Positions 1-13,070 of a DNA stretch of 13,070 bases are shown in pieces. The DNA lies in IMG/VR virus record IMGVR_UViG_2541047681_000003. One strand, given 5' to 3'. The stretch is from a virus (taxonomy: Duplodnaviria; Heunggongvirae; Uroviricota; Caudoviricetes). Under the pieces are notes generated by a model. The model saw only the letters and a program-made list of their open reading frames with translations, was not told the origin of the DNA and did not search any database. Each line of letters begins with the position of its first letter. The stretch's first letter is position 1. A program made the translations under genes and the position numbers.

Positions 1-705
1 CTGCCGCTGTTTCCGGCGCATGAATGTTATGTGGAGCCGTTTTGTGGGGCAGCAGCGCTCTATTTTCTTAAGGTACCCGGCAAGATCGAAGTCATTAATG
101 ATATCAACGGTGAGCTGGTGAACCTGTATCGGGTGGTAAAACATCATCTGGAAGAATTTGTACGCCAGTTCAAATGGGCGCTGGTCAGCCGGCAGATCTA
201 CAAATGGCTGCAGATCACCCCGGAAGAAACACTGACGGATATCCAGCGTGCAGCACGGTTCTACTACCTTCAGAAGCAGGCGTTTGGGGGCAAGGTGGCG
301 GAGCACAGCTTTGGTACCTCCACCATATCCCCGCCACGCTTCAACCTGCTGCGTATTGAAGAAGAACTGTCAGCGGCACACCTGCGGCTTTCCAGAACGG
401 TCATAGAACACATGGACTGGCAACAGTGCATAGAACGATATGATCGCCCGCATACGTTGTTCTACTGTGACCCTCCATACTGGGGAACGGAAGGTTATGG
501 TGTGGAGTTCGGACTAGAAAATTATGATCATATGGCAGATTTAGCACGCAGGATCAAAGGGAAGATGATTATATCGGTGAACGATATCCCGGAAATGCGG
601 CAGGCATTCAACGGTCTAAATATTCAGTCGGTTGATATCAGCTACAACCTCAAGATCACTGGCAAATCCAGTCGCAAGAAGGAACTCATTATCCTCAACT
701 TTTGA
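1..705 (+). CDS. DNA adenine methyltransferase, Dam-like; 5'-partial, reading frame is open from base 1
   Basis: Frame is open upstream of the GTG at 31 back to base 1. Translation has CYVEPFCGAAA (compare E. coli Dam motif I, LVEPFVGAG as I recall it) and FYCDPPYWG (DPPY motif IV of N6-adenine methyltransferases). Stop codon at 703-705. Confidence 0.8.
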   Translation: MPLFPAHECYVEPFCGAAALYFLKVPGKIEVINDINGELVNLYRVVKHHLEEFVRQFKWALVSRQIYKWLQITPEETLTDIQRAARFYYLQKQAFGGKVAEHSFGTSTISPPRFNLLRIEEELSAAHLRLSRTVIEHMDWQQCIERYDRPHTLFYCDPPYWGTEGYGVEFGLENYDHMADLARRIKGKMIISVNDIPEMRQAFNGLNIQSVDISYNLKITGKSSRKKELIILNF

Positions 706-1900
706 CCGAATAGTAAGACTTCATGCAGTGAATCAAGTACTGCATGAAGTCAAGGGCTGGTTTTGTGTACCAAAAATAAACAGTGATAGCGGTAATAATT
801 CCCATAACTAGAACACCACGTATAATCCAGAACGTACGTTTCTGCGTGTCTAGTCGCGCAGAAATACTGCTAAATACACCAGCCACGTCATCTTTAATGA
901 AGGAATATTCCTTATTAATCTGTTTTTCTTTGTATTCAATTTCTTCGCCTAAGGCCTTTATAGATTGCATCTGGTTCGAAAGTGCCAGCCAGATTAACGT
1001 TGCAGCAAAAATGCATCCCAGAAGAATTATTGTGTTTGTTATCCCTTGGCCTGACCATTTCGTAGCCACTTTGAATTGGGTAGCTACGATAACAGAGGCA
1101 ACAGGAATGCCAAGTATATGGTTCTGGATATCTGAAAACGCTTTGTGGATTTTACCCATTTCTTCGACTTTTGCAGCACGCAGTTGATCCATTACTTTGT
1201 CATAAGAGAATCCAGAAGAGTAGATACGATACCCTTTCAGAAACTTTTCATGCAGACGCTGAATATTGTCCAGTAAATAAGCGAATACTAGAGGTGAATC
1301 AATTCCATCACTAACTGCTTGAATACTTTCAATCAGAATATCTAGCTTCTGATCCTTATGGGTATCATCATTGAAACAAGCTATAAGGTTATCAAGATAC
1401 TCCCTTTGCAAATTTTGTACATTTTCTGCAGCGAAGTGCGGTAATAGCTTGATAACTTCTTTTTTCAGAAAAACTAACTGACAAGTTGAGTTATCAAAGT
1501 AGGCCGCGGCCTCTTTTAGCAGGTTAACGAACTCGAGAATCTTCCGGTAGTTGCTGATGAAAACGGGGATATCTTCATCATCATTACGAAATTTTGTTTC
1601 TAGGATGAAGTAATTAGCTGGCTCAAGGCACTGATGCTTTGGAGCATTTAGCAATTTTTCATGGGTGGAAAACACAAGTCCCAGTCCACTCCGTGGTGAC
1701 GTCACACGTAGGATGATCGTGTTACCTGGAGCGATAGTGCCTGTATCAATAGAAAGACCATATTCACGAGGATCATCAAGCAAAGTATCAACCAGATCAC
1801 AATCGGACTGATCTAAGAGCAACAGCGAACCGACACGAAACCCCTCTTGGAATTCCATACGACGATACAGAGCTGTCAGCATCTCAAATGAAATCGCCAC
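695..1900 (-). CDS. Membrane-anchored protein of unknown function (401 aa); second gene of the leftward repressor-A-B block
   Basis: GTG start at 1900..1898, 2 bp after the TAA of the upstream gene, with GAGG 7 nt upstream. C-terminal hydrophobic stretches GITNTIILLGCIFAATLIWLAL and FWIIRGVLVMGIITAITVYFWY look like TM helices. The N-terminal ~290 aa look soluble with no motif I recognise. Visibly AT-rich. Confidence 0.6.
   Translation of the reverse strand: MAISFEMLTALYRRMEFQEGFRVGSLLLLDQSDCDLVDTLLDDPREYGLSIDTGTIAPGNTIILRVTSPRSGLGLVFSTHEKLLNAPKHQCLEPANYFILETKFRNDDEDIPVFISNYRKILEFVNLLKEAAAYFDNSTCQLVFLKKEVIKLLPHFAAENVQNLQREYLDNLIACFNDDTHKDQKLDILIESIQAVSDGIDSPLVFAYLLDNIQRLHEKFLKGYRIYSSGFSYDKVMDQLRAAKVEEMGKIHKAFSDIQNHILGIPVASVIVATQFKVATKWSGQGITNTIILLGCIFAATLIWLALSNQMQSIKALGEEIEYKEKQINKEYSFIKDDVAGVFSSISARLDTQKRTFWIIRGVLVMGIITAITVYFWYTKPALDFMQYLIHCMKSYYSVKS
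717..751. repeat. Perfect palindrome, 13-bp arms GACTTCATGCAGT / ACTGCATGAAGTC around a 9-nt loop
   Basis: Read directly from the sequence. It sits 12 bp after the methylase stop and inside the last codons of the convergent minus-strand gene 695..1900. Confidence 0.7.
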
Positions 1901-1902
1901 GA

Positions 1903-2910
1903 TTAAACCTCAGTCATCCACATTTCCCTAAATTCTTCAGGTACATTACGTAGGGTGATAATATTTGTTTCCGGATCATAATCAATATAGCCTTCAGTTT
2001 TCCCTTCCCGGTCAAACTTAAGTTCCCAATATTTAGACTTGCCTTTAAAAGATACCAGAGCCCGAATGACTCGACCATCAGGAACGAAGCCATCCGATAA
2101 CTCCAACTCTTCAGCAGCAAGTTTACCAGATAACTCCTCGGGAGCCTGGGGCCAAATGGCATTAACAAGGGTTTCAAGACTAAGTGGTTCACCAGCCTTA
2201 CTTAGTGCATGTAAGTGTTCAAACGCACTCTTAAGAAATGCATCTTTTTCAGCGCCGTCAAGTCCTTTCTCTGCCGCAAATGCTTTTAAAACGTCACGTA
2301 ACTTTTCAGACTCTCGTTTGGCGATTAAGACATCATTACAGCCTAGGAACTGTTTAAAATAGTTTGAAACATTACCTTGCCCCTTAAGAAAACTGATATA
2401 GCGCTCTGCGCCACTTTCCCACGCGGTTAAGTCAATGCGCCCAGCCATACGCAGCTTAGCAATATCAAGATAGGTACTATCTTGGATGTTAAAATCATCT
2501 GTGACAGTGGACCCAATGGTAGCGCTTACAATAGCTATCAACAGGTGTTCATTGTGTCCTATCACGATATTTGCAAAAAGAACATAACCACCAGTAGCCA
2601 TGTTTTCTCGCTGAGAACGTTCCGTCAGGTGATGCATCATTCGGCAGGAACTTTGGTAGAAATCATCAACACCTTCGAGAAAGTCCCCAGCCATTCGTTC
2701 CATAGGATAGTTATCCGTATCGCCTTCAAAATAGCCATAACCTTTACCTGTGCGTCCTGCATATTTTGCACAAATATCGTTTATAAGGCGCTGAGAGGCT
2801 TCAGTAACTAGACCTTCTTCAGGACTCAATCTCTCAGAAGCGTCTCCATTTTGTTGTTTGTCTAAAATGTGAACTACAACGTGTTTAACTTCAATGGTCT
2901 GCTCAGACAT
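1903..2910 (-). CDS. NdpA/YejK-like nucleoid-associated protein homologue (335 aa)
   Basis: ATG at 2910 with AAGGTGG 6 nt upstream. Same length as E. coli YejK (335 aa). Segments GGYVLFA and LRMAGRIDLTAWESGAERYISFLKGQ resemble my recollection of YejK (GGFVLFC; IRMAARIDLTRWEGGEERYLAFIKGR). This is a by-eye match, not a database hit. Confidence 0.55.
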   Translation of the reverse strand: MSEQTIEVKHVVVHILDKQQNGDASERLSPEEGLVTEASQRLINDICAKYAGRTGKGYGYFEGDTDNYPMERMAGDFLEGVDDFYQSSCRMMHHLTERSQRENMATGGYVLFANIVIGHNEHLLIAIVSATIGSTVTDDFNIQDSTYLDIAKLRMAGRIDLTAWESGAERYISFLKGQGNVSNYFKQFLGCNDVLIAKRESEKLRDVLKAFAAEKGLDGAEKDAFLKSAFEHLHALSKAGEPLSLETLVNAIWPQAPEELSGKLAAEELELSDGFVPDGRVIRALVSFKGKSKYWELKFDREGKTEGYIDYDPETNIITLRNVPEEFREMWMTEV

Positions 2911-2980
2911 TGGCTATCCACCTTATTTTTTATTGCTTAATGGCAAATAATTTCTGCTATATGTTCTCGTTAGGAACACA

Positions 2981-3388
2981 TTAACCCACATTTTTTAACC
3001 GCTCAATCGTTGCGGATAATTCCTTCAGTTGTTTTTCCATCTCAATCACACGCTGTTTTTCTTCAGCGCCTCGCATGAGATCTCGCCGAACCTCAGGATC
3101 TAACTGGTTTAGAAGTTCAAGCATTTTAAGGTCTGACGGGCTGAATTGATGTTGTGTTGGTACAGCAACAATTTCTTTAGATGGAATATGTTCTTTACCG
3201 GTAAGTAGCCAATCGATTGATACACCCAAATGGGTACTTAGCGCAACAAGAGCCTCTGCGTTTGGTTCTCTCTCTCCACGCAAATAGTTTTGAAGTGAGC
3301 GATATGGAATTTTTGATAAGTCAGATAATGCCTTTATTGTCATGCCATTAGCATCCATCACTTCACGCAATCTCTCTTTTGTACTCAT
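2981..3388 (-). CDS. XRE-family helix-turn-helix repressor; candidate prophage immunity repressor
   Basis: Start taken at the internal Met (MSTKERLREVMDANGMTIKALSDLSKIPYRSLQNYLRGE...), which gives a typical N-terminal XRE HTH. It is divergent from the early operon and is followed by a C-terminal coiled-coil-like region. The longer ORF-track N-terminus would cover the promoter region and has implausible composition. Confidence 0.75.
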   Translation of the reverse strand: MSTKERLREVMDANGMTIKALSDLSKIPYRSLQNYLRGEREPNAEALVALSTHLGVSIDWLLTGKEHIPSKEIVAVPTQHQFSPSDLKMLELLNQLDPEVRRDLMRGAEEKQRVIEMEKQLKELSATIERLKNVG

Positions 3389-3404
3389 TTGAACATATCT
3401 CAAT

Positions 3405-3432
3405 TTGACACACTCATTTGGGTGTGTACAAT
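3405..3432 (+). promoter_or_regulatory. Sigma70-like early promoter (-35 TTGACA, 16-bp spacer, -10 TACAAT) overlapped by inverted repeat ACACAC-N8-GTGTGT (3408..3427)
   Basis: Hexamers read directly from the sequence in the divergent repressor/ner intergenic region. The 6-bp-arm inverted repeat spans the -35 and spacer. Direct repeat CAATAGA x2 lies at 3429..3444. Confidence 0.55.
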
Positions 3433-3476
3433 AGACCCAATAGAGTACATCATAACCTAACAGGAACACGGTGCAT

Positions 3477-3701
3477 ATGAACAAACAACAAGTTCGGGCA
3501 CGGCTGGTTGAACGAGGCAGTAGCTTGCGCCAGTTCGCGCTTAACGCGGGCTATGAACCACGAACAGTCACCCAGGCAGTCAGTCGCTGGGCTGGTAAAA
3601 GTGAACTACCTCGCGGTCGTTTGACTTATCGGATTTTGCGAGATCTATCGGTTGCAATAGGTAAAGAAGTTACCCCCGGTATCCTTAAGGAGGCGTCATG
3701 A
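3477..3701 (+). CDS. ner: Ner-like DNA-binding protein (Mu Ner / Nlp family)
   Basis: ATG at 3477 with AGGAA upstream. SLRQFALNAGYEPRTVTQAVSRWAGKSE resembles Mu Ner LSALSRQFGYAPTTLANALERHWPKGE. First rightward gene next to the repressor, as in Mu. Confidence 0.7.
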   Translation: MNKQQVRARLVERGSSLRQFALNAGYEPRTVTQAVSRWAGKSELPRGRLTYRILRDLSVAIGKEVTPGILKEAS

Positions 3702-4006
3702 ATAAACCAAATACATCAAGCTCAGGTATCCGTATTTTGCGCGTTCTTAAGGCCTTACGTGGCCACGCTTTGAACGGTGTTTCTAACGGGGAACTAGCGG
3801 TTGCACTGCACGAATCACCGGCAAACATCAACCGGGCACTTAACACGCTCATTGAAGAAGGGTTGGCTCTGAAACTAGAAAACGGGCGTTTCGCACCAGG
3901 CATCCAGTTGCTGCAGATCGCCATGGCCCACAGTAACGAGATGGCACGTGCACAGGATCGCATTAACGAAATCAACCAACGTGTTATTTCAGGTAGTCGT
4001 TTGTAA
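3698..4006 (+). CDS. Winged-helix DNA-binding protein (IclR/MarR-like HTH)
   Basis: ATGA start/stop overlap with ner. IRILRVLKALRG...VSNGELAVALHESPANINRALNTLIEEGLA looks like a winged HTH. Confidence 0.5.
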   Translation: MNKPNTSSSGIRILRVLKALRGHALNGVSNGELAVALHESPANINRALNTLIEEGLALKLENGRFAPGIQLLQIAMAHSNEMARAQDRINEINQRVISGSRL

Positions 4007-4016
4007 GGAGTAATCA

Positions 4017-4928
4017 ATGGGACGCACCAAATCACCGGTTAGCACTGAACTGAACGTCGAGGTACCGCTGTCGGATGATCTCAATGTCAGTCTAAACGCC
4101 ATGACACAGCATCGCATGGAAATCATGCAACAGTTCGGCGATGGTCTGCCTTATGAGCGCGATCGTGTTGTCCATGAGGCACGCTTTTATATGGCACAGA
4201 GCGCTGAGGCCATGCTGGAGGCAGGTAAGCGGCTGATAATCCTTAAGGAAAATGAACCACACGGGGAGTTTATAAAGATTCTTGAAAGTGAGTTGGGGCT
4301 GGCATACCGGACATCTGTGAGAATGATGCAAGCATCGACAAAATACTTATCCCCGGCGCTGAAACCAAATGTGCCAACGTTGGCACATTTGGGAAAAGCC
4401 AAACTTTTCGAATTAATGACAGAAGACGACGAAGAGCTTGCCGAACTGGCCGACGGCGGCACAGTTGCCGGCCTGACGCTTGACGACGTTGATCGCATGT
4501 CAGTACGCGAACTTCGCCAGGCCCTGCGCGAAGCGCGCGAAACCAACGCAGCACAACAGCGCGTACTCGCCGATAAAAATGAAAAAATTGATTCTCTCTC
4601 TACCAGACTGGAAAAGAAATCCCGTATTCAGCTGCCTGAGCCTGATGAGGAGGTTAAGAAGCTGCGGGCGGAAGTGACAGCATTAGCGGTTGAGGCGGAA
4701 TCTGCTATCGCCGTCCGACTGTCCAGCGCTTTTGAGACACTGTGCGCATATTGTGCTGAAAACATGATTGATACTCCCAGAGACTTCATGGCAGGCCTGG
4801 TCTGTCAACTGGAAAGCACAGCGCGTAGCCTGCGCTCCACATTTGACCTGCCGGACGAGCCAACAGGCGATGTCGCGCCTTCATGGCTGACTGAGCCGAC
4901 GCCACAGATTAACGGGCTGGAGGCATAA
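4017..4928 (+). CDS. Hypothetical protein (303 aa), acidic with a coiled-coil-like centre
   Basis: Strong RBS AGGAG 7 nt upstream of the ATG. Same strand and coding compositional style as the early operon. No motif recognised. Confidence 0.6.
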   Translation: MGRTKSPVSTELNVEVPLSDDLNVSLNAMTQHRMEIMQQFGDGLPYERDRVVHEARFYMAQSAEAMLEAGKRLIILKENEPHGEFIKILESELGLAYRTSVRMMQASTKYLSPALKPNVPTLAHLGKAKLFELMTEDDEELAELADGGTVAGLTLDDVDRMSVRELRQALREARETNAAQQRVLADKNEKIDSLSTRLEKKSRIQLPEPDEEVKKLRAEVTALAVEAESAIAVRLSSAFETLCAYCAENMIDTPRDFMAGLVCQLESTARSLRSTFDLPDEPTGDVAPSWLTEPTPQINGLEA

Positions 4929-6711: not shown

Positions 6712-7878
6712 ATGCTGGTACTGAAGCAGCAACTGAAAGAGGCCCGTATTCCACAGGCGGTGGTGGCGAGAGCTGTCGATGTTTCTGAGGCCACGCTGGC
6801 CCAGATTGTGAATCATAACGCGTGGCCCCGCACCAGCCCCGGAGAAGTGCGCCGGCGTCTTGCGTCCTGGCTGGAAAGTCAGGGGATTGATACAACGAAG
6901 AGTTTTGATGCTGTACAGGGCGCGGCCACGCCCCGTACAGCGGGTACCACAGATAAAACGAGCCTCAGTGAGGAAGAGAATATGTTACTCAAAAAACAGG
7001 TGTTATTTCCAGCAACCAAAAAAGCGTTTGGTCTTTTCCGTGACCCGTTCGCCGACGAAGCCATGCAGGGTTCTGATGATGTGTTCACCACCCCGGACAT
7101 TCGCTACGTGCGTGAGGCGCTGTACCAGACAGCCCGTCATGGTGGGTTTATGGCCGTCATCGGTGAGTCCGGTGCGGGTAAATCCACGCTGCGCCGCGAC
7201 CTGACTGAACGTATCAACCGCGAGAATGCGCCGGTAATTGTTATCGAGCCATACATCATCGCTATGGAAGACAACGATGTGAAAGGGAAAACCCTGAAGG
7301 CAGCAGCTATTGCCGAAGCCATTATCAGTACCATCGCACCACTGGAAAGCATCAGACGCAGTCAGGACGCCCGCTTTCGCCAGTTGCATCGCGTCCTGAA
7401 AGACAGCAGCCAGGCGGGGTTCAGCCACGTTCTGGTGATTGAGGAGGCCCACAGTCTGCCCATTCCGACACTGAAACACCTCAAACGCTTTTTTGAGCTG
7501 GAGTCCGGTTTCAAAAAACTGCTGTCCATCGTGCTGATTGGCCAGCCGGAACTGGCGACAAAACTGTCTGAACGCAATATGGAAGTCCGTGAAGTCGTTC
7601 AGCGCTGTGAGGTGGTCGAACTTCTGCCTCTGGACAATAACCTTGAAGAGTTTCTGACGTTCAAACTGCAACGGGCCGGTAAACAACTGACGGACATTAT
7701 GGACGCCAGCGCAGTGGATGCCATACGTGCCCGCCTGAGCAATCCGGGAAGTCATCGTAAAAATATGGTCAGCCTGCTGTATCCGCTGGCCGTCAGTAAC
7801 CTGGTAATAGCCGCCATGAATCTGGCCGCTGAAATCGGGGTTCCACAGGTCAACGCTGACGTTGTCAAAGGGGTTTAA
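6712..7878 (+). CDS. Transposition ATPase, AAA+ (MuB / TniB / TnsC-like)
   Basis: Start at the internal ATG 6712 with AGGAGGG RBS just after the transposase stop. Walker A GESGAGKST, Walker B-like VLVIEEAH, N-terminal HTH-like segment. Confidence 0.8.
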   Translation: MLVLKQQLKEARIPQAVVARAVDVSEATLAQIVNHNAWPRTSPGEVRRRLASWLESQGIDTTKSFDAVQGAATPRTAGTTDKTSLSEEENMLLKKQVLFPATKKAFGLFRDPFADEAMQGSDDVFTTPDIRYVREALYQTARHGGFMAVIGESGAGKSTLRRDLTERINRENAPVIVIEPYIIAMEDNDVKGKTLKAAAIAEAIISTIAPLESIRRSQDARFRQLHRVLKDSSQAGFSHVLVIEEAHSLPIPTLKHLKRFFELESGFKKLLSIVLIGQPELATKLSERNMEVREVVQRCEVVELLPLDNNLEEFLTFKLQRAGKQLTDIMDASAVDAIRARLSNPGSHRKNMVSLLYPLAVSNLVIAAMNLAAEIGVPQVNADVVKGV

Positions 7879-11729: not shown

Positions 11730-11771
11730 TTCCTGCTTGTTAAAGTCCTTTCAAAAATCTCCTTATTGTAT

Positions 11772-11805
11772 AAAAGCACGGTAGACCCCTTACCGTGCTT
11801 TTTTT
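11772..11805 (+). terminator. Rho-independent terminator ending the early operon
   Basis: Stem GCACGGTA / TACCGTGC with 7-nt loop GACCCCT, followed by seven T residues, preceded by AAAA. Located 43 bp after the mor stop. Confidence 0.8.
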
Positions 11806-11843
11806 ATGCTCTCTCTTTAGTATTCAGGATGCAGGGAGAAAAT

Positions 11844-12476
11844 ATGTTTGACGTTTCGTTGTTAAATCTGCCATGGGCAACACTGGTGACCCTGACCAGT
11901 GGCTATATTGGGTATTTTATTGCGAATGTGGGACTGAAGGATCACCACAAGCCCATTGAGGTGACTTTTTCTTCGCTGATTTTTGGCCTGACAGCAATGA
12001 TGGCTTACCAGGCTGTTATGTGGGCAGGTCTGAATGCCTGGCTGGCAACACCACCAGCACTTCTGTGTGCCGTTACATGCGGTGCGTGGTGGCGCAGGTA
12101 CGGTCGCAAATGGATGTACAGATTACTGTGGAATAATGATGTTTCATGGTCTGACGATACCAGCTCAGCATGGCAGGCAATGTTTGATCAAACAGGCTTC
12201 AGCGTTACCGAGGTCAGAGTGATTCTTCGCGATGGTTCCGGTATGATGTCACGGCTGCCAGGGAACTTTGAAGAGTGGCCTAACGGTCCGTTTACCCTGG
12301 GGAATAAAGGCGATATGGTTCTTTACGTCACGCACAGCAGCCCTTCAGGCAGTAACGAATGGGAAGAGTATAAAGGCGTGGTTGATAAGTACTGGGGAGC
12401 TCTGGCAACCTATATTCCAGCAGATCAGATTGCCAGAGTGGAGATCAGGCGCGTTCGTGCAACGAACGATGAATGA
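11844..12476 (+). CDS. Membrane protein of unknown function (210 aa): about three N-terminal TM helices plus a soluble C-terminal domain
   Basis: ATG at 11844 with GGGAG RBS. The ORF-track start at 11766 would read through the terminator hairpin. Hydrophobic stretches WATLVTLTSGYIGYFIANVGL, SSLIFGLTAMMAYQAVMWAGL and PALLCAVTCGAWW. Confidence 0.55.
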   Translation: MFDVSLLNLPWATLVTLTSGYIGYFIANVGLKDHHKPIEVTFSSLIFGLTAMMAYQAVMWAGLNAWLATPPALLCAVTCGAWWRRYGRKWMYRLLWNNDVSWSDDTSSAWQAMFDQTGFSVTEVRVILRDGSGMMSRLPGNFEEWPNGPFTLGNKGDMVLYVTHSSPSGSNEWEEYKGVVDKYWGALATYIPADQIARVEIRRVRATNDE

Positions 12477-12720
12477 TGTTTATTTTTTCCCTGGGGCAGG
12501 GGCTGCCGGCATAGTGGTTTTATTGGCAGAGGAAGACGATTCTCCTTTTCTACCGGAATCGCGCTCGAACGTCACGATGTGCTTGCTTTTGGGCTTTTCT
12601 GAGTAATCCAGGCTATCATGCTTATTGTTTTGAGTAGTCATTGGAATCATCCTTTTTGTTGCGGGTCATGTTTCAGCAAACTCGATTCTAAGTTGCCAGG
12701 AAGGATGATTTCAATGCCCG

Positions 12721-12837
12721 ACTTATCTATCGTATAGCGGAAAAGAATTTCAGTTCTGTTCACCAGAACCCATGTTAACCCACTCCAATTCGTTATTTAT
12801 CTCACGGATCCCCCTTCATTTATCTCATGTCTGATCA
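12721..12837. repeat. Terminal non-coding region with direct repeats ATTTATCTCA (12795..12804 and 12818..12827) and a degenerate copy ACTTATCTAT (12721..12730); candidate transposase-binding sites at the element's right end
   Basis: Repeats read directly from the sequence, two perfect copies 23 bp apart. Element-side sequence ends ...TCTGATCA (CA at 12836..12837) next to host kefC-derived sequence. No ORF on either strand between 12607 and 12837. Confidence 0.5.
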
Positions 12838-13070
12838 CTTTGTGGATCGAGTTCGAGGCCGATAATAAACAGCATCAGCACCACGCCAATCTCGGCAAAG
12901 TGCAGAATAGATTCGGCATCGGTCACCAGTCGCAGCCCCCACGGGCCAATAATGCAGCCGGCGATCAGGTAGCCAAGAACCGATCCCAGACCGAGACGTA
13001 CCGCAATGGGAACAATCAGCGCCGCCGAACCGAGATAAATCAGCGCCTGAATAAGCGTATGGCTATCCAT
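12838..13070 (-). pseudogene. kefC: kefC 5' fragment: first ~78 codons of the glutathione-regulated K+ efflux gene, then unrelated sequence and a stop
   Basis: Translation [77 protein letters not shown] matches the E. coli KefC N-terminus as I recall it. The reading then becomes SDQT-stop instead of RLWKL.... Junction uncertainty is about 3 bp. Confidence 0.75.

Follow-up and report, generated by a model that had tools for sequence, protein, structure and literature searches.

Our analysis of the window, the whole 13,070-nucleotide stretch of DNA studied here (IMG/VR record IMGVR_UViG_2541047681_000003), identified positions 687-2960 as a likely mobile two-gene anti-phage cassette, in which a nucleoid-associated protein (NAP) would act as sensor and a membrane protein as effector. 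The pair would be a divergent relative of DS-1 with the architecture of type II PANGU, and thus probably a defence module of an already known kind, judging from its sequence, and no new kind of system. The sequence-only reading, in which this pair was first singled out, had considered it not to be a named defence system. That view is outdated: DS-1 and type II PANGU, both published in 2025-26, each combine an NA37 protein with a transmembrane (TM) protein, and NCBIfam models for DS-1 already exist. The features of the locus are as follows:

2981..3388, minus strand: XRE/CI-type prophage repressor, 135 aa (Pfam HTH_3 E=3e-12, Phage_CI_repr E=1.5e-6).
2911..2980, minus strand: spacer of 70 bp between the repressor gene and gene A, with the backbone/cassette junction at 2960/2961 (blastn breakpoints against L011 and L012).
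687..2960, minus strand: swapped cargo cassette, comprising genes A and B and a 50-bp leader (blastn against L011 and L012; GC content).
1903..2910, minus strand: gene A, 335-aa NA37/YejK-family nucleoid-associated protein, putative DNA-clamp sensor (Pfam, PDB and NCBIfam profiles).
695..1900, minus strand: gene B, 401 aa, GTG start (open reading frame; start backed by an N-terminus conserved among homologues).
1121..1900, minus strand: gene B residues 1-260, soluble acidic N-terminal region (AF2 model, charge).
695..1120, minus strand: gene B residues 261-401 and stop codon, membrane region (hydropathy, alignment, AF2, NCBIfam).

An open reading frame check of the window found the minus-strand trio of XRE repressor, gene A and gene B where the sequence-only reading had placed it, and RefSeq annotates the same three coding sequences in 19 E. 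coli genomes. Homology of the window to L011 and L012 is confined to positions 1-686 and 2961-4200 (blastn), and beyond position 2960 the backbone, repressor included, shares 82% identity with KP12-type prophages. In related prophages a 615-bp segment that contains a 175-aa ORF takes the place of the cassette, and the GC content of the cassette is 0.38-0.44 versus 0.51-0.61 in the early operon. This low GC, together with the exchange against another gene in sister prophages, identifies 687-2960, at the level of sequence, as accessory cargo in the slot that follows the repressor gene of a BcepMu-like transposable prophage. When the module was compared by megablast with a phage collection, the repressor flank alone was matched, in two records. 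The repressor itself belongs to the phage backbone and lies outside the mobile cassette, as its neighbour and possible transcriptional driver. Neither alternative cargo of the sister prophages (the 175-aa ORF and a DUF2441 gene) had a PADLOC or NCBIfam match, and the A-B cassette is therefore the one basis for regarding this repressor-side slot as a defence hotspot.

The proposed NdpA/YejK-like nature of gene A was borne out by Pfam NA37 (PF04245), which matched with E=1e-80 over profile positions 1-324 of 325 and a score of 272 bits against a cut-off of 24.6. The protein aligned end to end (residues 4-330) with E. coli YejK (PDB 9be2; E=7e-30, 28% identity), and the NCBIfam YejK model (NF001557) gave 9e-55 and 186 bits, under its equivalog cut-off of 341. 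Gene A lies on a mobile cassette and was paired with gene B at all loci checked, whereas the host has a separate yejK elsewhere; by these sequence comparisons, gene A is classed as a mobile paralogue and not an orthologue of the host gene. The dimer-interface residues of YejK (Y140, F285, G287, F296, P320) are kept in gene A. Mutation work on YejK found six pore-lining basic residues (R173/R176/K177 and R276/R280/K284) to be needed for DNA binding, and only R280 is kept at the aligned position in A, the N-domain triad R173/R176/K177 being unconserved. Other basic residues (R280, R283, K289, K291, K293 and R301 in the numbering of A) are clustered in the same segment of the C-domain. DNA binding by gene A is a prediction.

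Gene B had zero matches in Pfam. In its AF2 model the N-terminal region (residues 1-260, pLDDT about 90) contains an alpha/beta domain at about residues 1-212, followed by the start of a long helix, and a structure comparison found no solved relative of the N-terminal region. With a net charge of -11 and a pI of 5.0, residues 1-260 are acidic, as is the corresponding region of 26/26 homologues. The C-terminal TM helices described earlier were recovered both by hydropathy (hydrophobic segments 262-280, 285-311 and 356-378) and as long AF2 helices (213-275, 285-331 and 333-378); the membrane region also holds an amphipathic linker of roughly 45 residues. The most conserved motif of the B family, FSYDK...IHK.FSDIQN.ILGIPVA, as defined by invariant alignment columns, extends from residue ~231, in the N-terminal part, past the boundary between the two domains and into the first hydrophobic helix. 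Strong purifying selection acts on both genes (dN/dS of 0.039 in A and 0.075 in B).

Both proteins are homologous to those of DS-1, or DefensePredictor system 1, composed of DS-1A (WP_000355468.1; NCBIfam NF053868) and DS-1B (WP_000150292.1; NF053869). This two-gene system was validated against Bas1, Bas26, Bas3 and T3, with weaker activity on T5 and T7 (DeWeirdt et al., Science 2026). Its -log EOP values in MG1655 were 7.6 for Bas1, 2.7 for Bas26, 1.7 for Bas3 and T3, and 1.0 for T5 (Table S7, PMC13092281); the main text of the DefensePredictor paper does not discuss DS-1 individually, and details are given in the supplementary tables. Gene A matched the DS1_1_antiphage model (NF053868) at 1.4e-17 and 63.7 bits, under the equivalog cut-off of 330, and DS-1A itself by BLASTP at E=8e-9 with 20-23% identity, so that housekeeping YejK, at 28%, is closer. 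Gene B matched DS1_2_antiphage (NF053869) over residues 74-366 at 3e-21 and 75.9 bits, under the equivalog cut-off of 315; the same model was matched by 26/26 B homologues (best 2.4e-27). Direct comparison of B with DS-1B gave E=6e-10 and 23% identity over 302 aa (BLASTP), and the B-family profile aligned to DS-1B over 269 columns with an hhalign probability of 95.3% (E=2e-8).

The two systems also share their layout, with the NA37 gene first and the genes abutting at a 2-bp spacing, and both are E. coli accessory genes. Their proteins are 335 and 401 aa long in the window versus 391 and 404 aa in DS-1, and both second proteins, of ~400 aa, combine a soluble N-terminal part with hydrophobic C-terminal helices. 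However, the pairs are only about 23% identical, both proteins of the window scoring far under the equivalog cut-offs, and DS-1A has an N-terminal zinc ribbon that is absent from gene A, whose sequence begins at NA37 profile position 1. The sequence evidence thus places the window pair as a distant relative of DS-1, with both proteins homologous and neither an equivalog.

The expectation that the two genes would be conserved together was confirmed: a same-strand NA37 gene lies directly upstream of B in 44/44 IMG/VR loci with room for one and in 5/5 other genomes checked, down to 29% B identity. Contigs are common to 27 A and B clusters, and the identities of A and B drop in parallel. The pairing is far beyond chance, and the pair is a real conserved module. 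Two unrelated phage types, Mu-like and lambdoid, carry it in classic moron slots; in about 20 lambdoid prophages it lies by the Q antiterminator, often antisense to Q, and in Paraburkholderia it was found at a non-phage chromosomal site beside an Mrr-like restriction enzyme. Tight linkage to the repressor is confined to the prophage lineage of the window, and the other Mu-like relatives have a convergent Dam gene that separates the repressor from A. Since repressor linkage is not general, with Dam-separated and Q-lysis placements elsewhere, the cassette is autonomous.

This distribution bears on whether the pair might instead be a regulatory or nucleoid-remodelling module serving its mobile element, a reading to which we assign a low probability. 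In that case A, a paralogue borne by the mobile element, would adjust gene expression of prophage or host, or else DNA topology, much as NdpA2 acts for the PAPI-1 ICE, and might assist Mu-like transposition, with B as an accessory membrane anchor. The greater similarity of A to YejK than to DS-1A, the location of the cassette in the regulatory centre of the prophage and the mobile-element NA37 regulators that have been described (NdpA2/PAPI-1; reviews of foreign NAPs) would all be consistent with such a role. However, the pair is unchanged in Mu-like phages, in lambdoid phages and at the non-phage site beside a restriction enzyme, and is therefore not tied to the biology of one element; sister prophages manage without the cassette; and regulation leaves unexplained the strict coupling of A to a homologue of a validated defence membrane protein. 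Because both proteins are homologous to DS-1 and the gene arrangement matches type II PANGU, a nucleoid-remodelling function by itself is the weaker alternative.

Type II PANGU consists of a YejK-like protein, Pag2A, and of Pag2B, which has an acidic N-terminal domain and a C-terminal TM domain; both genes are required, and the system acts by abortive infection with growth arrest at high MOI (bioRxiv 10.64898/2026.04.06.716658). During T4 infection Pag2A departs from the nucleoid, and its binding to the Pag2B N-domain has a KD of 19 nM; nucleoid release, Pag2A-Pag2B binding and abortive infection were reported for PANGU-Ecu only (bioRxiv 10.64898/2026.04.06.716658). The window and type II PANGU have in common a bicistronic operon with a YejK-like NAP, and B shares with Pag2B the acidic N-terminal domain, termed 'DNA-mimicking' in Pag2B, and the C-terminal TM region, a likeness seen at the level of architecture. 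E. coli is also the source of one tested type II example, and the abortive-infection logic fits the anatomy of the window. However, PANGU systems were found through their linkage to defence islands, whereas the window cassette sits in a prophage regulatory slot. Homology to DS-1 and the type II PANGU layout lend good support to the original proposal of a soluble DNA-binding 'sensor' and a membrane 'effector' forming a prophage defence or exclusion module.

By analogy with PANGU, gene A would sit on chromosomal DNA as a YejK-like dimeric clamp in the uninfected lysogen. An infecting phage that degrades or displaces host DNA would release A, which could then bind the acidic N-terminal domain of B. 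This binding would switch on the C-terminal membrane domain of B, presumably permeabilising or depolarising the inner membrane, so that growth of the infected cell would stop and the phage burst would be aborted.

The same two proteins could in principle protect the cell directly rather than abortively, by superinfection exclusion at DNA entry, with B sensing attachment or envelope perturbation and A clamping and blocking incoming DNA, in a manner similar to Kiwa. The KwaA/KwaB layout is that of a membrane protein with a DNA binder, and the window pair, with DNA binding predicted for A, resembles it in reversed gene order. The A family comprises sequence-nonspecific dsDNA clamps, and the PANGU authors call the sensor versus effector roles in type II unresolved. 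PADLOC (2023) had no match for A, and the TM region of B weakly matched KwaA (E=8e-5). However, the KwaA match was present in 2/26 homologues and limited to hydrophobic helices, and is probably compositional, and a profile search found no KwaB/DUF4868 domain in gene A; a relationship to Kiwa was therefore rejected. The growth arrest of type II PANGU at high MOI and the departure of its NAP from the nucleoid also point to abortive infection triggered at the chromosome, and we consider direct exclusion improbable.

A lysis cassette lies directly downstream of the pair in most Mu-like and lambdoid contexts, which might suggest a toxin-antitoxin-like addiction or lysis-timing module, with B as a holin-like toxin restrained by A that stabilises the prophage or modulates lysis. 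This appears very improbable: many lambdoid loci carry the pair antisense to their lysis genes, DS-1 cloned by itself protected against phages, and neither PANGU gene is toxic alone (bioRxiv 10.64898/2026.04.06.716658).

The probable defence cassette of the window recalls lambda Rex in that a prophage encodes a soluble and a membrane protein immediately behind its repressor gene and no terminator intervenes. Lambda Rex is believed to abort infections by way of the membrane. However, neither A nor B matched the RexA or RexB Pfam families at E<=0.01, and sizes and topology are different, B having 401 aa and a large cytoplasmic domain and RexB being small with four TM segments. Nor is co-transcription with the repressor, as in cI-rexA-rexB, a conserved property of the A-B cassette. 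In the window itself, the absence of a terminator from the 70-bp gap was upheld by a consensus scan that gave zero terminator-like sites, and the sole inverted repeat in the gap is 5 bp long with no T-run; the gap also carries an AAGGTGG ribosome-binding site at ~2917-2923. No convincing promoter was recovered either, the sole nearby minus-strand promoter-like match (9/12, at 3045-3016) lying within the repressor gene. Promoter-like matches in the window were at shuffle level (9 found versus 8.0 expected), and promoter and terminator scans of the window and two other contexts yielded no matches above shuffled controls, so that the mode of transcription is not settled by them. The stop of A and the start of B are 2 bp apart, and the internal ribosome-binding site noted earlier is a GAGG 7 nt upstream of the GTG. 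Lacking a terminator-like site in the gap, and with only 50 bp of cassette-specific leader, the locus is compatible with read-through from the repressor; expression in lysogens by this route, and co-transcription with the repressor, are plausible from the sequence, although not general among relatives.

A stronger version, which we consider unlikely, is that the cassette, having brought along a leader of only 50 bp, has lost its own promoter in this transposable-phage lineage and has as its one route of expression the repressor transcript, of which it forms the distal part, wiring a genome-integrity abortive-infection sensor to lysogenic maintenance. Mu-like replicative transposition fragments and rearranges the host chromosome and should itself tend to free a nucleoid-bound sensor. 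If this reading is true, repressor coupling or another immunity feature would keep an induced prophage from setting off the cassette it carries; another possibility is a fail-safe role, in which the cassette kills cells whose induction goes wrong.

Within the DS-1B-like effector family, the analysis delimits a large and divergent branch with 1275 clusters at 50% identity, paired with an NA37 gene at all loci checked. Prophages carry this branch as cargo in two recurrent slots, the BcepMu-like centre and the lambdoid Q-lysis region, neither of which is a classical defence island. A reading of raw sequence had here recognised a defence architecture whose experimental validation dates only from 2025-26. 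With its cassette abutting the repressor gene, the window offers a natural case for asking how such systems are expressed in lysogens, and prompts one to ask how a transposable phage can live with a chromosome-damage sensor.

Three consecutive minus-strand open reading frames were read in the window at the places proposed by the sequence-only reading, and RefSeq annotation has the same three CDSs in 19 complete E. coli genomes where the segment is present (91.7-100% identity):

2981..3388, minus strand: repressor gene, encoding an HTH_3 / CI-repressor-type protein (Pfam)
1903..2910, minus strand: gene A, 335 aa, end-to-end match to Pfam NA37 (E=1e-80)
695..1900, minus strand: gene B, 401 aa, GTG start, hydrophobic C-terminal segments

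The full-length NA37 match confirms by HMM search the NdpA/YejK-like identity suggested for gene A, whose product also matches the solved structure of E. coli YejK (9be2; E=7e-30). No Pfam family was found for gene B. Residues 1-260 of its product form a soluble, acidic part (net charge -11), and in all 26 of 26 homologues the corresponding part has a net negative charge (mean -9); hydrophobic stretches at residues 262-280, 285-311 and 356-378 agree with the C-terminal transmembrane helices proposed earlier. An AlphaFold2 model (26 homologues in the alignment; pLDDT 82) predicts an alpha/beta N-domain with confidence and, after it, very long helices. The 2-bp spacing between A and B with an internal ribosome-binding site was likewise seen, with GAGG upstream of the B start.

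The claim that such a pair is not a named defence system did not survive comparison with NCBIfam, where this kind of system, already published, is modelled as DS-1: gene A matches 'DS1_1_antiphage, nucleoid-associated anti-phage protein' (E=1.4e-17) and gene B matches 'DS1_2_antiphage' (E=3e-21), both well below the equivalog cut-offs, and the DS1_2 model is matched by all 26 of the 26 B-family members tested. Homology of both partners to the DS-1 proteins is supported by direct sequence comparisons (A with DS-1A, E=8e-9; B with DS-1B, E=6e-10, 23% identity over 302 residues), and hhalign of the B-family profile against DS-1B gave a probability of 95.3% (E=2e-8). DS-1 is a two-gene unit of an E. 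coli isolate; its products are DS-1A (391 aa, with a zinc ribbon and NA37) and DS-1B (404 aa). Under its native promoter in MG1655 the unit lowered plating by 7.6 logs for Bas1, 2.7 for Bas26, 1.7 for Bas3 and T3, and 1.0 for T5, and T7 and SECphi27 plaques were small; the YejK domain is listed there as newly validated in defence, without a mechanism (DeWeirdt, Mahoney and Laub, Science 2026; PMC13092281). The DS-1 genes are spaced by 2 bp, as are A and B; the window pair differs in its low identity (~23%), in an A protein without the zinc ribbon and in scores under the equivalog cut-offs. Judged from these sequences, it is a putative, divergent member of this kind of system and belongs to a large prophage-borne branch.

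Relatives of B form 166 clusters at 90% identity, and the B profile matched 1275 clusters of a 50%-identity representative library at E<=1e-3 (391 of them at E<=1e-30); of the full-length matches listed, nearly all have ~380-460 aa. An NA37 gene lies immediately upstream of the B relative in five divergent contexts (Paraburkholderia, Shewanella, Salmonella, Citrobacter and Morganella). In IMG/VR, 46 loci carry a B relative (29-100% identity), and in 44 of the 44 loci with room the adjacent upstream gene, likewise oriented, is an NA37 homologue, the other two having lost that side to a contig end; the co-occurrence across unrelated prophages that had been put forward for checking was found in both Mu-like and lambdoid contexts. 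In 27 cases an A and a B cluster occur on one contig, with identities of both declining in parallel. Compared with an E. coli copy of 92% identity, the window gives dN/dS values of 0.039 (A) and 0.075 (B). A and B form a conserved module. That the element uses the pair for its own regulation or for nucleoid remodelling does not fit a cassette found in unrelated elements, nor an obligate membrane partner, and we consider this reading unlikely.

Two slots recur: the centre of BcepMu-like phages, between the early region and the holin (~23 loci), and, in lambdoid prophages, the Q-antiterminator/lysis region, in which the pair often runs antisense to Q (~20 loci). One Paraburkholderia chromosomal copy adjoins an Mrr-like restriction enzyme. 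In L009, a Morganella lambdoid prophage, the Q-like gene is directly followed by a promoter-like site (TTGACA/TAGTAT) and by a strong terminator-like hairpin, after which comes the NA37/B pair, an arrangement resembling pR'/tR' that would place the cassette in the late-transcript leader; the promoter/terminator-like features lie at 4666-4770 and 7237-7258 of that locus, and a second terminator-like hairpin stands after the pair, ahead of the holin. The late-transcript leader is also the position of the stx genes in Stx phages. This closeness of lysis genes to the cassette, together with generic helical-bundle structural matches, might suggest a holin or toxin-antitoxin-like role; these are the sole hints of it, and we regard such a role as very improbable.

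The window itself comes from a BcepMu-like transposable prophage, of which it holds the early half with the regulatory centre. Rightward from the repressor come a ner-like gene, genes for a DDE transposase, a MuB-like AAA+ protein and Gam, and gemA-like and Mor genes; in strain M-17 (NZ_CP068394) lysis and late genes extend leftward past the Dam methylase. The ner-like gene is separated from the transposase (3698-4928, plus strand) by genes for an IclR-type wHTH protein of 102 aa and a DUF3102 protein of 303 aa, early-region genes that to our knowledge are absent from classical Mu. After the Mor-like activator, the last genes are 11766-12476 (plus strand; product of ~211-236 aa with hydrophobic segments, without a match in PADLOC or NCBIfam) and a small antisense ORF at 12480-12650 (minus strand), and this region may be another accessory slot. 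The prophage right end falls at ~12,842, within kefC, the 5' part of this host gene (12825-13070) being cut off after ~76 codons by the prophage end. Other E. coli genomes have the same end next to fadM, yecR, mdfA, yeiB or further genes, as would be expected of random, Mu-like transposition; the exact kefC junction was found in none of the complete genomes of the collection. The Dam-family DNA adenine methylase gene (1-705, plus strand; PADLOC type II/orphan MTase, E=9e-101) is convergent with B, overlapping it by 11 bp (695-705), and its start lies outside the window, the RefSeq CDS beginning ~65 bp before position 1.

Homology to sister prophages (E. coli CFSAN051542; Klebsiella phage KP12) is limited to 1-686 and 2961-4200. 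Because it stops at 686 and resumes at 2961, the intervening 687-2960, with A, B and a 50-bp leader, is a swapped cassette; GC of the cassette region is 0.38-0.44, compared with 0.51-0.61 in the early operon. In the sisters (43 E. coli genomes and Klebsiella phage KP12) the slot holds an unrelated 175-aa hypothetical protein, as in loci L011 and L012, where two genes are cargo of the same variable region:

L011 5455-5982, minus strand (same in L012): 175-aa ORF in the post-repressor slot
L011 3827-4393, minus strand (same in L012): additional DUF2441 gene, located between the Dam and holin genes

Searches with PADLOC and NCBIfam found no match for either protein.

The mechanism proposed here is modelled on PANGU, in which a YejK-like nucleoid-associated protein senses phage-induced genome degradation. 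Type II PANGU consists of the nucleoid-associated protein Pag2A and of Pag2B, whose N-terminal domain is acidic ('DNA-mimicking') and whose C-terminal domain is transmembrane; both genes are required, each alone is non-toxic, and protection against T4 has abortive-infection features, with Pag2A-GFP leaving the nucleoid during T4 infection and Pag2A binding the Pag2B N-domain with a KD of 19 nM (Li et al., bioRxiv 10.64898/2026.04.06.716658). The window's B shares this layout of acidic N-terminal part and C-terminal transmembrane domain, a likeness of architecture only. By analogy, A would clamp the chromosome as a dimer, the loss of intact host DNA through phage would free it, free A would bind the acidic domain of B, and the putative membrane domain of B would harm membrane function and abort infection; beyond homology and anatomy, we infer all of these steps. 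Comparison with YejK gives partial support to a YejK-like behaviour of A. The YejK dimer-interface residues Y140, F285, G287, F296 and P320 are conserved in A. R280 is the only one of six pore-lining basic residues, mutation of which impairs DNA binding in YejK, to be kept at its aligned position, and further basic residues of A cluster in the same C-domain segment. Kiwa-like entry exclusion is a doubtful alternative to such abortive infection, the KwaA match of B being weak and unsupported across the B family.

The proposed linkage to the repressor is narrower than the module. An AAGGTGG ribosome-binding site is present in the 70-bp gap between repressor and A, where reading and scanning of the sequence detected no hairpin of terminator type. 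The cassette brought only a 50-bp leader, and read-through from the repressor is plausible in the window. Promoter scans, here and in two further contexts, yielded counts no higher than in shuffled sequence and are little guide to how the cassette is transcribed. A near-consensus sigma-70 site (TTGACA, 16-nt spacer, TACAAT; 11/12) at 3405-3432 on the plus strand lies where the repressor and the ner-like gene diverge and is probably the early promoter; a minus-strand site of comparable quality for the repressor itself was not found. The tight repressor-A arrangement (~74 bp) occurs only in the window's own lineage (L013-L016 and L022). In the related Mu-like phages L017 and L028 the Dam gene lies between the two, on the strand opposite to both, more distant Mu-like loci have gaps of 0.7-1.3 kb, and in lambdoid prophages the repressor is not near the pair. 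Repressor linkage is therefore not a property of the module, and the parallel drawn with lambda cI-rexA-rexB is retained as one of position and function at best, a Pfam search having found no homology of A or B to RexA or RexB. There is a small chance that in this Mu-like lineage the cassette is expressed only with the repressor; if true, this would bear on how a chromosome-shredding transposing phage avoids tripping its own genome-integrity sensor.
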